DNA of 64,000 nt from Spirochaetia bacterium (GTDB lineage Bacteria > Spirochaetota > Spirochaetia > SZUA-6 > Bin103): the NCBI GenBank assembly GCA_965208575.1, contig CBDBOV010000006.1, positions 960,001-1,024,000 on the forward strand, read 5' to 3'. Below, one piece after another: positions 25,446 through 30,077 of the stretch (position 1 is its first letter; every line of letters begins with the position of its first letter). The notes below the pieces were generated by a model. The model saw nothing but the letters and a program-made list of their open reading frames with translations. It was not told the DNA's origin and searched no databases. A program made the translations under genes and the position numbers.

Positions 25446-27269
25446 ATGAATTTTGTGTGTGTAGCGTTCCGAACGGGCCTCACCGTATTGGCAGGCTTGG
25501 TTCTGGCCGTAACCGGCGTCTGGGCCAGTCCAGCCGCGGAAGAGCAGCCGGCCGCGGCGATGGAGAAAGAAATGGTGATGGACCCCACCACCGGCGAGAT
25601 GGTGACCGCGCCAGAATATGGCGGGACATTGAATACCTGGTTTGTGGATTTTTCTGGCGAGGTTGATACCTATTTCGGCTGGGTGGACCCTCGATTTTCG
25701 GGCGTCGTAGAGAAGCTAGGCATCGGCGACTGGGGAATAGATAGAGACGTATATGACTTCAACAACGATGGCCCGCTTCCTGTGTCTGCCATGACCGGGA
25801 GGCTGGCGGAAAGCTGGGATATTTCCCCGGACGGCCTCACCTATACCTTCCACATACGCAAGGGCGTTCACTGGCATAACAAGGCACCCATGAACGGTCG
25901 GGAGCTGACTGCCTCTGATGTCGAATACAACTTTCACCGTCAATTGGGTGTGGGCAAGTTCACCGACGCCGAACCGAACCCCTTTGGTGCCGCCGCCGAC
26001 CTCACCGGCATCCCATTCGAATCGATAACGGCCACCGACAAATGGACGGTTGTCATGAAGCTGAAGGAGCCCTACCTGCCTGCGCTTCGGCTTATCCTCA
26101 TCGACTACTTTGTTTACATATTGCCCCCCGAGGTAATCGAGCAATCAAGGACTGCCGACGTGCCACAGGGCAGGATTTCGGATTGGAGGAACCAGGTCGG
26201 CACCGGTCCCTTTATGCTGACTGACTCTGTCGAAAGCAGCTCTTTTACCCTTACCAAGAATCCTGACTACTGGCGCTTCGACGAAAAATACCCGCAGAAC
26301 CGCTTACCCTACATTGACGAGTTAAAGGTGCTGATTATACCAGAGCAAGCAACAGTAATGGCGGCCCTACGCTCAGGCAAGGTTGATTTCAGACCATTTG
26401 GTACTTCTCTGAACGACGGAATCAGCCTGCAGCGGACCAACCCCGAAATCGTCCAGCACCCGGTTTTCTTTCGGTCCAATGATGCCATTGCTGCTAACGT
26501 GCGCGTACCGCCCTTTAACGACATCAGGGTGCGCAAGGCAATGCAGATGGGACTGGACCTTGACACCATTGCGACTACGTACTGGAAGGGTCACGCAGTT
26601 ACGACACCTCAGGGGATGGTAGGGGTGAAAGGATATAGCATCCCATTTGAAGAGTGGCCCGAAGAGGTCAAGAAGGGCTATATGTACGACCCGGAAGGTG
26701 CCGAGAAGCTCCTTGATGAGGCTGGATTACCGCGCGACGCCGACGGCATTAGATTCAAGACCCGCTTGCAGATCCTCCAGGGTACACAGGATGTGGGCTA
26801 CGCAGAAATAGCTGTCTCCTACTGGGCTGAGATTTGCGTCGATGTTGAGCTTGATGTATTTGAGGACTGGACCGCATATCACGAGGGGCTATTCTCGGGT
26901 ATGTATGAAGGCATGATGGGTTCCATTTCGGGCACCCTTTTTGACCCTGTCATGTCGGTAGGCTGGTATCGCTCGGACGCACAGTGGAACCGCCCCTTAC
27001 ACCAGTGGCCTGAGTTGGACGCCCTCGTTGACGCCGCCCTGGCCGCTACCACCACTGACGAGCAGCAAAGGCGGATTGCAGAGGCAGATATGTACACTAT
27101 AGAGAAGCACTACCAGATATGGGGTCCTAAACCTCCAACGTTTGTCGTCCACCAACCGTGGATCAAAGGCTATCACGGTGAATCGAATCATCTGGGACCA
27201 AACGAGCGGTGGGACATGCTCGCGCGCCTCTGGATCGACCAGGATCTGAAGAAAGAAATGGGTTATTAG
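25446..27269 (+). CDS. ABC family-5 solute-binding protein, cassette 4
   Basis: Signal ..VTGVWASPAAEE, PEYGGT, LAESWD, GTGPF, YDPEGAEKLLDEAG; AGGAG RBS. Confidence 0.92.
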   Translation: MNFVCVAFRTGLTVLAGLVLAVTGVWASPAAEEQPAAAMEKEMVMDPTTGEMVTAPEYGGTLNTWFVDFSGEVDTYFGWVDPRFSGVVEKLGIGDWGIDRDVYDFNNDGPLPVSAMTGRLAESWDISPDGLTYTFHIRKGVHWHNKAPMNGRELTASDVEYNFHRQLGVGKFTDAEPNPFGAAADLTGIPFESITATDKWTVVMKLKEPYLPALRLILIDYFVYILPPEVIEQSRTADVPQGRISDWRNQVGTGPFMLTDSVESSSFTLTKNPDYWRFDEKYPQNRLPYIDELKVLIIPEQATVMAALRSGKVDFRPFGTSLNDGISLQRTNPEIVQHPVFFRSNDAIAANVRVPPFNDIRVRKAMQMGLDLDTIATTYWKGHAVTTPQGMVGVKGYSIPFEEWPEEVKKGYMYDPEGAEKLLDEAGLPRDADGIRFKTRLQILQGTQDVGYAEIAVSYWAEICVDVELDVFEDWTAYHEGLFSGMYEGMMGSISGTLFDPVMSVGWYRSDAQWNRPLHQWPELDALVDAALAATTTDEQQRRIAEADMYTIEKHYQIWGPKPPTFVVHQPWIKGYHGESNHLGPNERWDMLARLWIDQDLKKEMGY

Positions 27270-27307
27270 CTATTTTTTGAGGGTTTCAGACCCTGTGGCT
27301 TAGCTCG

Positions 27308-27365
27308 GGAAAAAGGGAGCTGGAAGGCGGTCTCCTGCAGGCGCGCTTCCCGGCTCCCTTTTTCC
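27308..27365 (+). terminator. Intrinsic terminator-like hairpin between SBP and dppB
   Basis: GGAAAAAGGGAGC ... GCTCCCTTTTTCC. Confidence 0.65.
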
Positions 27366-27603
27366 TGGAAGAGGGGTGGGCAATGACGGAAGAGAGTGAG
27401 GTTCCAATCCGAAGAATGATGAGGTGTGTCACATGAGAGCCTATATCATCAGACGGTTATTGCTGATAATCCCTACGCTATTTATATTGACCATCCTGGT
27501 CTTTTTCTCGGTCCGCTTCATCCCGGGCGATGCAATAGACGCAATGTTGGGTAAGGTGGAATTCCAGGTTGACGTAGACCGTGAAGCTCCTGAGAAACAA
27601 CAA

Positions 27604-28992
27604 TCAGGCGGCCTCCGGGACAAGCTCATAACCGAGTGCGTGTGCCTGCCTTCGGAGCCGGCGTTCAAAGCGGCGCCGGTCCTGGCGCTCCTCGGCGGCG
27701 AGGATGCTGTCATCGTAGGCCACGCGATGCGTGATCAGATGGTAGATGATCCGAGCCAGTTTATGCGCGACTGCAGTGGTCGCTTCGGGAGTACCCAGAC
27801 GCGCCCGCATGCGGCGGAAGTGCTGGCCCAGGGCCGATGGGCTGCGGTACAACGACTGGGTCGCCCAGTGCAGCGCCTGGGCGGCCCGATTGGTGCCCCG
27901 ACCGGTGTGCGAGCTGATGATCTTGCCGCCGGTGATCTGGTTGTGGGGGCACAGGTGCAGCCAGGAGGCGAATTGCGGTGCGGTCGGAAAGCGGGACAGT
28001 TCCGGGCCGAGTTCGGTGAACAGAACCAGCGCCGTACTTTCGCCGATGCCGGGAATCAGCGTCAGGTCAGTGCCGAACAGGTGCGTAAGGTGGCCGCGCA
28101 GGTCGAACCGCTTGGCCGGTGACTCGGTTGGCGCCTCGGGCTCCGCATCGATTCCCTCATCCGGTGGGTCGTCGCCCACCGCGCCGGGTGGCTCGCTGCT
28201 GGCTTCGAACGCGCGGATGCCGGCTTCGATTTCCTGATCGCACTCCGTGATGAGTTGTTGGTAGTGGGCATAGGTCGCTCGCGCGTGCCGCAACGCCAAC
28301 AGGTGCTCGGCGCGCCAGTCGCCCTGCAGCGCCTTGATCAAGGTCTCGCGGCTGGCTTTGATCCGCCGGTCGGCCAGAGCGGCCAACCGCGCCGGATCCC
28401 GCTCACCCGCCAGGATAGCGTCCGTAATGGCCAGACCGGTCGTCCCCGTCAGGTCAGAGATGGCATGGTGCAGATGCACGTTCATCTGGCTGTACGCCTT
28501 CTGCATGTGCAACACGCTGCGCGACGCCATCTTGATCAAGGTGTCGCGATGGCGCAGCACCGAGCGCAGTGCACACACCTCGTCGGCAGGGCGGAATGAG
28601 CCGCGCAGCAATCCCACCGAGTGCAGGTAGCGCAACCACTCGCAGTCGGCCACGTCGGACTTCCGACCGGGTACCGAGTGCACGTGACGCGCATTCACCA
28701 GCACCACGTCGAAGCCGTGTGCCTCCAGGATCTGATACACCGGAATCCAGTACACACCGGTGGACTCCATCGCCACCGTGGTGACCTCGCATTCCTTGAG
28801 CCAGTCGGCCAAGGCGTGCAGGTCCGCGGTGAACGTAGCAAAGTTCCGGATCGGGTCCGGGTCGCGCTCCGGGCGCACAGCCGCGTACACCTCGGTAGCG
28901 CCTATGTCCAAGCCGGCAGCGTCCGGGTGCATCACCTTTGGTTGCGCTGTGCGACTGCCCTTGCCCTTGCGTCTGTGTCTGCGTCGTGCCAT
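27604..28992 (-). CDS. IS110 family DEDD recombinase/transposase
   Basis: AGLDIG, VAMESTGVYW, VLVNA, RKSDVADC, IPGIG, LCP...ITGG, AVAHKL; GGAGG RBS. Confidence 0.93.
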   Translation of the reverse strand: MARRRHRRKGKGSRTAQPKVMHPDAAGLDIGATEVYAAVRPERDPDPIRNFATFTADLHALADWLKECEVTTVAMESTGVYWIPVYQILEAHGFDVVLVNARHVHSVPGRKSDVADCEWLRYLHSVGLLRGSFRPADEVCALRSVLRHRDTLIKMASRSVLHMQKAYSQMNVHLHHAISDLTGTTGLAITDAILAGERDPARLAALADRRIKASRETLIKALQGDWRAEHLLALRHARATYAHYQQLITECDQEIEAGIRAFEASSEPPGAVGDDPPDEGIDAEPEAPTESPAKRFDLRGHLTHLFGTDLTLIPGIGESTALVLFTELGPELSRFPTAPQFASWLHLCPHNQITGGKIISSHTGRGTNRAAQALHWATQSLYRSPSALGQHFRRMRARLGTPEATTAVAHKLARIIYHLITHRVAYDDSILAAEERQDRRRFERRLRRQAHALGYELVPEAA

Positions 28993-28994
28993 GA

Positions 28995-29200
28995 AACCTC
29001 CGCTACGACTGAGTGGTGCGGCCAAGGCGTGTGTAGCAGGTATTCTCCTGAACGGGATGATCGCCACCCGGCCGCGCCGGCTGACAACCTCACCAATGAC
29101 TACGCCACCCGCCCCGGGGCCAAGCTCTTGAACGGGTTCGCAGAACGTAACGCCAGTGACGCGCCGGCCTACTTTCGCGCTCCACCCAGAACTCTGCCCA
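28995..29200 (-). ncRNA. Putative IS110 bridge RNA
   Basis: CCCGT-TCAAGAGCTT matches the target; CCCGT-TCAGGAG matches the donor junction; TATAGT -10 at 29202-29207. Confidence 0.6.
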
Positions 29201-30077
29201 CACTATAGCTCACCCTTGTTTCTTTCATGACTGCGCCGGCCCAGGGGCCGGTGGGATAGCTCTTGAGCATATGCTGGGATTGGACGTGCCTGCCCACGTG
29301 CAGTATGGACGCTGGATAGGAGGTATTTTCCTCCACGGTACCCTTGGCAAATCACTGGTTGGCGGTGGCGCGGTGGGGGATAAGATAATAGATAGACTGC
29401 CGGTAACCATTGAGCTTGGTGTCCTGGCAATCGTAATCGGCCTCTTGATAGCCCTGCCAGTCGGCATCTACTCGGCGATTCGCCAGGACACGGCTGCCGA
29501 CTACGCGGGGCGCTCCATCGCCATCATCGGCCTGGCAACGCCCAACTTCTGGCTGGGAATCATGGTCATGATATACCCGGCAATCTGGTGGGGCTGGTCG
29601 CCACCGATGGAAGTGATTCCTTTCACCGAAGACCCGCTGGGGAATCTCGGGGTGTTCCTCATTCCCAGCCTGATTCTGGGCACGGCCATGGCTGCAGGCG
29701 CAATGCGGATGACGCGCACCATGATGCTGGAGGTGCTCAGGCAGGACTATATCAGGACCGCCTGGGCCAAGGGTCTCAATGAGAGGGTAGTTATTATCAG
29801 ACACACCGTTAAGAATGCCCTCATCCCGGTAGTTTCCCTGATCGGCCTGCAGTTGCCTGTCCTGGTGGGCGGCGCCGTGATCATGGAGAACATATTCAAC
29901 CTGCCGGGGCTCGGTCGTCTCATGCTGGTTGCCCTCACTGACAGAGACTACCCGTTGGTCTCCGGAGTAAACCTGTTTTTTGCTGCGGGGGTTATGGGGT
30001 TCAACCTAATAATCGACCTGATCTATCCTTATTTGGACCCCAGGGTCCGTTACAAATAACGGCGGGAAGTCGACAAC

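Follow-up and report, generated by a model that had tools for sequence, protein, structure and literature searches.

A multicopy IS110-family insertion sequence whose left end probably encodes a bridge RNA of reversed guide order

An IS110-family element within a permease gene

The DNA analysed here, called the window throughout, is a stretch of 64,000 nucleotides (nt) from a Spirochaetia bacterium (assembly GCA_965208575.1, contig CBDBOV010000006.1, positions 960,001 to 1,024,000). Within it, an IS110-family insertion sequence (IS) interrupts the gene of an ATP-binding cassette (ABC) transporter permease. The element consists of a transposase gene, a long non-coding left end that precedes it and a very short right end that follows it (Table 1), and the left end appears to encode an RNA of two loops. 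We consider it an active or recently active element that chooses its insertion sites by means of this bridge RNA (seekRNA), a reading to which we give a probability of about 0.85. Its two 3' guides vary in relatives along with the DNA that they match. The element belongs to a kind known since 2024 from bridge and seek RNAs, and it adds an example, not a principle; the value of the example lies in its 15 identical copies at 14 independent sites of one genome.

The genome searched was the one that holds the window (6 contigs, 6.5 Mb). Besides 15 full copies at 100% identity it contains one truncated relative, 75% identical, and fragments; merging of a head-to-tail pair leaves the 14 independent sites. 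The exact ends are common to the 15 copies, and outside them the flanks diverge. The element ends in GAG, and so does the flank in front of its left end, at 29260-29262; no target duplication was seen beyond this shared (G)AG. In relatives AG, which reads CT on the other strand, closes every left flank and every right end; the relatives share no more than AG, and the copies of this genome no more than GAG. A first-pass annotation, made from the letters of the DNA, had let the element run from 27585 to 29262 and had proposed a shared GAGCT with its crossover at CT. Comparison of the copies moves the span to 27587-29259 plus one GAG and reduces the shared bases to the GAG found at the 14 sites. 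The CT of that proposal is, on the left (29258-29259), the element's own first two bases and, on the right, a chance match at this copy.

Across the reconstructed empty site the permease frame is continuous (...VDVDREA joined to LEHMLGLD..., read from the sequence). The consequence for the host is that a gene for a peptide-type ABC-transporter permease has been inactivated by the insertion.

The product of the transposase open reading frame (ORF) contains the domains PF01548 (6.4e-20) and PF02371 (1.5e-11), scores 251 bits against a cut-off of 140 with the NCBIfam model NF033542, 'IS110 family RNA-guided transposase', and aligns distantly with the IS621 transposase of PDB entry 8wt6 (E 1.3e-7). 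Its predicted catalytic residues are D29, E76, D113 and D116; the last three are conserved in at least 119 of 121 sequences, and D29, which was read from the sequence, was not counted. The position of the nucleophile, opposite the Ser of the ESG motif of IS621, is held by Thr354 in a column that contains T in 58 and S in 58 of the 121 sequences. The IS110 family is characterised by a Ser here, in a G--P----SG finger; Thr at this position has been described for IS1111 types (PMC11187229). With these domains, the NF033542 match and insertion that is specific for site and orientation and leaves no target duplication, the element is on sequence grounds a member of the IS110 family.

Table 1. Features of the element, its predicted RNA and the interrupted gene (window coordinates)
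Feature	Coordinates	Strand	Remarks
IS110-family insertion sequence, 1673 bp	27587..29259	-	CTATCC... left end to ...CTCAGGAG right end
Transposase/recombinase ORF, 462 residues	27604..28992	-	GGAGG 6 nt before ATG
Non-coding left end, 267 nt	28993..29259	-	holds the predicted bridge-RNA gene
Right end, 17 nt 3' of the stop codon, ending CTCAGGAG	27587..27603	-
Left copy of shared GAG (crossover region)	29260..29262	-	GAG at 15/15 left junctions and every right end
Loop 1, target-binding (predicted)	29118..29169	-	closing stem 29165-29169 with 29118-29122; inner stem 29150-29155 with 29133-29137
Loop 1, 5' strand GCGCGUC	29158..29164	-	putative right-flank guide, complementary to top strand
Loop 1, 3' strand UUCAAGAG	29125..29132	-	left-flank sense; would pair with bottom strand
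CU directly 3' of target guide	29123..29124	-	equals the element's first two bases; handshake-guide position
Loop 2, donor-binding (predicted)	29022..29117	-	stems 29112-29117 with 29022-29027 and 29106-29108 with 29040-29042; inner stem 29090-29095 with 29053-29057
Loop 2, 5' strand GCGUAGUCAU	29096..29105	-	candidate guide for the element's first bases, weakly supported
Loop 2, 3' strand UUCAGGAG	29045..29052	-	sense of the element's right end
AAGAAAC, left arm of 7-bp subterminal inverted repeat	29218..29224	-	35 nt inside left end
GTTTCTC, right arm of subterminal inverted repeat	27592..27598	-	-12 to -6 from right end; overlaps donor heptamer by 2 nt
TATAGT, -10-like hexamer, candidate promoter element only	29202..29207	-	position kept in relatives
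Interrupted ABC-transporter permease gene, 5' part	27424..27586	+	ORF list
Interrupted permease gene, 3' part (BPD_transp_1)	29260..30059	+	Pfam 5.6e-34

Occupied and free target sites in the host genome

At all 14 sites the left flank ends in TCAAGAG, and the element lies in a single orientation relative to this heptamer. The right ends of all 15 copies read ...TTCTCAGGAG, in which TCAGGAG is the heptamer of loop 2 of the predicted RNA. TCAAGAG occurs 346 times in the genome, as 14 IS left junctions, 15 guide copies internal to the element and 317 free sites. The element thus occupies 14 of 331 TCAAGAG and 0 of 620 non-IS TCAGGAG, which differs by one base (Fisher 3e-7); a TCAGGAG has an IS next to it only in the tandem pair, whose second copy follows the right end of the first. 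These data show that target and donor heptamers differing by one base are fully discriminated in this genome.

Preferred bases were also found upstream of the heptamer. C at -8 marks 11 of 14 occupied and 93 of 317 free sites (p = 0.0003), and A at -13 marks 11 of 14 occupied and 98 of 317 free sites (p = 0.0005); T stands at -10 in 7/14 against 61/317 and at -11 in 8/14 against 46/317. No RNA segment explains the preferred bases at -8, -10, -11 and -13. T-T-n-C is also present at the equivalent place in every right end of the family, and the sites mimic it. On the other side of the insertion, the bases that follow the right-end GAG at the 14 sites are CG (5), TG (3), CT (2) and CA, CC, AC and GA (1 each).

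The tandem pair (C4:1265899-1269247, loci L003 and L011) consists of two full copies head to tail with a single shared GAG, so that their meeting point is a circle junction (right end joined to left end) formed in nature. The second copy, which abuts the right end of the first, occupies a donor-arm half-site. At C4:146529-147225 lies the truncated relative (L017), a second element, about 75% identical and programmed differently, in the same genome. Decayed fragments at C2:51409-51817, comprising 293 nt of right end (97.6% identity) and a 49-nt piece, adjoin a full copy at C2:52107-53783. Some relatives carry tandem repeats of the last three element bases past the right end: (AAG)n in L022, one extra AAG in L023 compared with L045, and one to three GAG in the Paracaedibacter copies (L051, L052, L053 and L058). 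Such repeats, present in 0 of the 15 copies of this genome, could arise by slippage or by repeated recombination in shifted registers.

A predicted two-loop RNA in the left end

Relatives of the element were gathered from genome contigs (52 loci) and metagenome contigs (80 loci); among the latter, 76 of 80 have the left-end RNA motif ahead of the ORF, as located with nhmmer. An alignment of 38 distinct left ends, named A1, was folded to a consensus with RNAalifold. The consensus fold has 5 helices with 24 pairs, 14 of which show compensatory changes. Partners pair in 98.5% of the cells of the alignment and, when slid by 1-3 columns, in 22-51%. None of 500 shuffles matched the observed values on 4 of 5 measures, and 136 of 500 did so on the fifth, the count of further pair types. 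Four G-U pairs are nearly invariant, and the fold is therefore specific to the sense strand.

The fold consists of two modules, each a stem-closed internal loop capped by a hairpin, and the target loop lies 5' of the donor loop. Each module runs from the closing stem through the 5' loop strand, an A-pyrimidine pair of letters, an inner stem (UGG-G with C-CCG) with its hairpin, one single base and the 3' loop strand back to the closing stem. The CCCGT in front of both main guides is made up of the inner stem's 3' half and the one-base linker. Compensatory changes were found in 3 of 5 pairs of the closing stem of loop 1 and in 6 of 6 pairs of the basal stem of loop 2.

Part of this had been put forward in the first-pass annotation. 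The strings that it named are present on the minus strand (CCCGT-TCAAGAGCTT at 29136-29122, CCCGT-TCAGGAG at 29056-29045, TATAGT at 29207-29202 and GTGAGG at 29093-29088). The domains and the 38-sequence fold bear out its IS110-family element with a left end of about 270 nt encoding a two-loop RNA, and both main guides had been named correctly and in the correct order, the target guide first (UCAAGAG, loop 1) and the donor guide second (UCAGGAG, loop 2). Its 10/10 match between target guide and target shrinks to a guide of 7 nt, followed by a CU that is the element's own first two bases and by a last T that matches by chance. GTGAGG, which it offered as a right-hand guide, falls in the inner stem of loop 2, and the partner assigned to it, CTTCAC, occurs at 1 of 14 sites, this copy only. 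The check that it suggested, covariation of guides and insertion sites, turned out in its favour: 14 of 14 sites match here, and guides vary with flanks in relatives.

Guides and DNA partners across relatives

The 3' strand of loop 1 was compared with left flanks at its 6 variable positions. On average 4.29 of these were identical to the cognate flank, compared with 2.49 for non-cognate flanks (35 distinct combinations, 34 scorable). In the 75% paralogue from the same genome (L017) the loop-1 guide is UUGUCAAG and the left flank TGTCAAG (7/7); in a 75% metagenome relative (L074) the guide is GAAUUGAG and the flank AATTGAG (7/7). A 32% relative on a Streptomyces plasmid (L155) has the guide UAGGUCAG and the flank TAGGTCAG, which agree at 8/8 as judged by eye. 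In this element, and in 9 of 9 distinct element types, the terminal 7 bases of the right end are found again in the 3' strand of loop 2, and the eighth base of this guide is always U or A in the RNA as against C (once A) in the DNA.

The bases that follow the 3' guides also have partners. The two bases after the loop-1 3' guide are the element's first two bases, and CT, TC, CG, TT and CA were all found matched; the exceptions are L028, L049, L068 and L074, the first three scored with manual boundary corrections. The base after the loop-2 3' guide equals the first right-flank base in 45 of 59 distinct pairs.

In relatives the 5' strand of loop 1 complements the right flank, and the last base of this strand stands opposite the G of AG. 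This right-flank guide makes 3.54 of 5 pairs with its cognate flank and 2.24 with non-cognate flanks, and at least 4 of 5 pairs form in 28 of 54 cognate versus 447 of 2600 non-cognate combinations. Matched changes of guide and flank include GCCGAC with TCGGC, GGGGAC with TCCCC, GGCGAC with TCGC, CGGGAC with TCCC and GAAGCGUC with ACGCT. A register one base off fits the right flank in two subgroups (L045/L144 and L055/L151).

The remaining strand, GCGUAGUCAU of loop 2, is a candidate guide for the element's first bases. The RNA 12-mer at 29099-29110 pairs at 10 of 12 positions (G-U allowed) with G+CTATCCCACCG, and its 5' part takes in 29106-29108 of the stem. A score of at least 10 against the element start is also reached by three further 12-mers of the element, one of them inside the ORF.

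Proposed mechanism and the evidence against it

In the mechanism that we propose, the left end would give rise to an RNA that the DEDD recombinase binds. Loop 1 would pair with the target, its 5' strand pairing with the top strand from the last core base rightwards, and loop 2 would pair likewise with the joined right-end/left-end junction of the excised circle. Strand exchange would occur at AG (CT on the other strand) with Thr354 as the putative nucleophile, and the 2 nt after each 3' guide would pair with the partner DNA after exchange, as handshake guides.

Several observations weigh against this reading. Folded singly, the 278-nt left end did no better than its shuffles (-115.1 kcal/mol, z = -0.32; 66 of 200 fold as well), and comparative folding was used because the single-sequence fold is uninformative. 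No Rfam 15 match lies inside the element; the 11 weak matches obtained at E <= 10 over 27000-29800 fall outside it and score far short of their gathering thresholds. A strict sigma-70 scan of L003 1150-1750 returned 0 sites, as did a terminator scan; this interval was taken by arithmetic, with the locus unread, as the tandem right-end/left-end junction plus its left end, and with 0 sigma-70 sites on it the idea of a junction promoter is unsupported. Four RNA runs were without depth over 28802-29235 and two without anything from the stretch, which is no test either way. The guide for the element's first bases is weak, its score being reached by 910 of 20000 shuffles, and at the level of the family it scores 5.03 for cognate and 4.49 for non-cognate partners. 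Finally, the family register of the right-flank guide predicts a right flank beginning ACG for this element; ACG follows TCAAGAG at 0 of 317 free sites, one occupied site begins AC, and the register is not enriched at occupied sites (1.36 versus 1.98 of 5; 1.93 versus 2.50 of 6). A register that does fit, shifted by one so that U faces the core G, is enriched at occupied sites (3.00 versus 2.19 of 5, one-sided p = 0.0023), and was chosen among 11 registers tried.

The family register was rejected for the right guide of this element in this genome on these comparisons. The shifted register agrees with a weak consensus at the occupied sites, a pyrimidine at +1 in 12 of 14 (p = 0.053) and G at +2 in 8 of 14 (p = 0.073). 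The 5' strand of loop 2, too, pairs best with the element start in this register. We conclude that the right arm contributes only weakly here and that the element spread via one arm (TCAAGAG with C at -8 and T at -10/-11) and the core, that is, by natural near half-site insertion in this genome.

A related behaviour has been reported for IS621, in which recombination takes place at half-matched sites (10.64898/2026.08.31.748434), and tandem IS110 modules have also been described (10.64898/2026.08.14.744561). The likeness to the former lies in insertion where one arm and the core match. Those reports, as far as their main texts go, deal with in vitro, engineered off-target or survey data, whereas in the present 15-copy family every one of the 14 natural sites is a one-arm site, and the arm used is that of the target loop, not that of the donor loop. 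Reliance on mostly one guide arm bears on off-target rules for the engineering of bridge recombinases.

Subterminal repeat and distribution of the family

The element carries a 7-bp subterminal inverted repeat (Table 1). In the family it takes the form AAGNAAC / GTTNCTT, with at least 6 of 7 bases matched in 28 of 30 distinct elements, and its middle base covaries (G:G 20, A:A 7, T:T 3). It may serve as a site for the protein, or its arms may pair in a single-stranded circle or in a read-through RNA. At the very tips we found no inverted repeat in the manner of IS1111; the longest exact match there is 6 nt, a length reached by 665 of 2000 shuffles.

The transposase has at least 7993 relatives at E <= 1e-20 (8000 candidate proteins scored). 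Relatives with the RNA motif were found on Citrobacter plasmids (nhmmer E 7.6e-6). Two plasmid-borne relatives, on Citrobacter freundii plasmid CP132326.1 (L154, 46% identity) and Streptomyces plasmid NZ_CP109360.1 (L155, 32% identity), are annotated 'IS110 family transposase'. In both, as judged by eye, CCCGU followed by a flank-sense guide lies upstream of the gene, and the guides of the Citrobacter element seem to end in AA, not AG. No name of the IS5075/IS4321 type was among the matches listed in a tblastn search of plasmids (60 of 651 records), and neither this search nor that of the proteins listed an ISfinder name by which the element could be classified.

Comparison with IS621, ISEc21 and IS1111-type elements

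The published systems are described here as in the main texts of the cited papers. Each loop of the IS621 bridge RNA is built of stem, left guide, stem-loop and right guide; of the two guides the left one pairs with the bottom strand and the right one with the top strand, a handshake guide following the latter on its 3' side, and CT serves as the core (PMC11208158, PMC11208160). Transcription of the RNA starts at a promoter that is reconstituted when the circle junction forms, and the recombinase binds this RNA. The present element resembles IS621 (Durrant et al. 2024; Hiraizumi et al. 2024) in having a recombinase with DEDD and Tnp domains, a long upstream non-coding end and a short right end, in scarless insertion with a shared dinucleotide, in the order of target loop and donor loop, in the plan of each loop (stem, guide, hairpin, guide, stem) and in the 2-nt handshake-like positions after one guide per loop. 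It differs in that the guides that read like the left flank (loop 1) and the right end (loop 2) lie on the 3' strand of their loops, compared with the 5' strand in IS621, and in that the shared dinucleotide on the RNA-sense strand is AG where that of IS621 is CT. Its recombinase, at 462 residues against 326, contains a long variable insert and has Thr for the catalytic Ser, and the sigma-70 scan of L003 1150-1750 found no junction promoter. The first-pass annotation had supposed a loop architecture different from that of IS621. The layout itself is that of IS621, two stem-closed loops capped by hairpins; what stands is the reversal of the strand-specific guide order, and such a reversal has already been described for IS1111-type seekRNAs (PMC11187229).

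Those seekRNAs put the complement of the top strand first, the reverse of the IS110-type ISEc21 (Siddiquee et al., PMC11187229). With the IS1111 seekRNAs of ISEc11, ISPa11 and ISKpn4 our element shares the top-strand-complementary segment 5' of the bottom-strand one, the presence of subterminal inverted repeats and the tolerance of an S/T-G nucleophile motif. Its RNA region, however, is upstream of the transposase gene, while that of IS1111 elements is downstream (PMC11187229); its repeat, placed 35 and 5 nt from the ends, is 7 bp long, compared with 11-13 bp and extensions of 7 bp and 3 bp there; and its transposase has 462 residues compared with 330-350. ISEc21 (PMC11187229) is alike in its upstream non-coding region encoding the RNA and in a target that is linear, not palindromic, but there the top-strand match lies 3' of the bottom-strand match, opposite to the order seen here. 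Of the features of the IS110 group sensu stricto, the long upstream and short downstream ends are present (267 and 17 nt), whereas the covarying 7-bp repeat departs from the repeat of 2-3 bp, or none, described for that group. In the main texts of the literature examined, this anatomy of reversed guides, upstream RNA gene, covarying 7-bp repeat and Thr/Ser nucleophile fits neither textbook archetype, and it may help to work out in what order the changes came about by which the IS110 and IS1111 groups diverged. A 2026 preprint, in which 86 covariance models cover 32,190 bridge RNAs, states that many of these RNAs depart from the structure of IS621 (10.64898/2026.10.21.760802); the present arrangement is probably already inside the published surveys.

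Proposed site polarity and alternative explanations

Taken on the strand opposite in sense to the transposase gene, the sites have CT as their core, and everything fits the scheme of IS621. The 5' strand of each loop is then a left-type guide that covers the first core base only and is followed by A and a pyrimidine, like A131-U132 in IS621; the 3' strand becomes a right-type guide, which spans the entire core and has two handshake bases after it. Because of the guide order, the identity of AG with CT and the positions of the handshake bases, we prefer to read the RNA as one of IS621 topology; relative to the polarity of the recombination sites, both the RNA gene and the transposase gene would then be turned round. 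It must be held against this preference that we infer the inverted polarity from those features and not from cleavage chemistry.

The same features can be arranged otherwise. The loops might be circular permutations of those of IS621, with a true AG core on the RNA-sense strand and a polarity that is not inverted; the long guide would then remain the 'left' guide after a CGU-like linker, the apical hairpin of IS621 having been opened and the basal stem capped. Such a permutation would suit the (C)CGU that precedes the full-core guide in both loops, much as the left target guide of IS621 follows its C47-U49 linker (PMC11208158), as well as the greater length of the left-flank-sense guide (7-8 nt) and its coverage of the whole shared dinucleotide, again as in IS621. 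It needs, however, two independent connectivity rearrangements, one per loop, where inverted polarity needs none. Inverted polarity also accounts for AG being CT on the other strand, for the match of partner DNA with the 2 nt after the 3' guides, since in IS621 the handshake position is 3' of the right guides, and for the conserved A and pyrimidine after the 5' guides, of which A131-U132 after the left donor guide of IS621 is the counterpart (PMC11208158). We therefore regard the permutation as unlikely, though as an alternative of real weight.

More distant from both is the idea that protein or DNA-DNA contacts choose the target and that the CCCGT-heptamers and 7-bp repeats are DNA sites bound by the transposase. 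C at -8, T at -10/-11 and A at -13 (11 of 14) are conserved in donor and target without explanation by the RNA, the subterminal repeat covaries, and no transcript was observed in RNA runs that have no depth over the left end and are no test either way, all of which such contacts would accommodate. They would not lead one to expect that across relatives, whose proteins remain related, the heptamers follow the flanks at each base, nor that they sit in the loops of a structure with 14 compensatory pairs and strand-specific G-U pairs; moreover, RNA dependence has been demonstrated experimentally for IS621, ISEc21 and four IS1111-type elements (PMC11208160, PMC11187229). We consider choice by such contacts improbable. 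Chance, or a by-product such as capture of target sequence into the left end, is barely credible as a source of the guide-like matches: a 7-nt match is short, and the genome has 346 TCAAGAG, yet the heptamer stands at 14 of 14 independent sites, its one-base variant is occupied at 0 of 620, and in relatives the same positions hold other heptamers that match other flanks.

With the bridge-RNA reading and inverted polarity preferred, a broader proposal can be made, tentatively and with more doubt than confidence. The element may represent a large lineage between IS110, with which it shares the upstream RNA gene, and IS1111, which it resembles in guide order, covarying 7-bp repeat and Thr/Ser nucleophile, with a polarity inverted relative to IS621 and CT antisense to the RNA. 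Such a lineage would extend from Acidobacteriota and Pseudomonadota to plasmids of enterobacteria and Streptomyces, and the element would be a natural case of spread by one guide arm and a few bases read by the protein (C at -8, T at -10/-11). If this is true, the lineage records how RNA gene and site polarity were rearranged between the IS110 and IS1111 groups, and one guide arm with a few protein-read bases suffices for spread through a genome.

Expression and neighbouring features

At the alignment position of the -10-like TATAGT, relatives have A/T-rich hexamers (TATACT, TAAAAT, TATGAT, GATGAT and others). Two metatranscriptome contig sets cover parts of the ORF and of the flanking permease gene. 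Three metatranscriptome contigs of run X16, over 27546-29296, connect both permease parts past the position of the element; at least two of the three have 35-36 other letters between the permease parts. All three probably stem from related strains in which the permease gene is uninterrupted, and they are no proof of an empty site.

All the weak microRNA-like matches to Rfam come from a long G+C-rich inverted repeat at 27302-27370, between a substrate-binding-protein gene (end 27269) and the permease gene; this repeat is probably a terminator, an attenuator or a hairpin like a repetitive extragenic palindrome (REP). Within the element, a small hairpin (CCGGCCC-CUG-GGCCGG, 29235-29250, minus strand) directly follows the first 9 bases, and in relatives other sequences, judged by eye, make a hairpin at this place.

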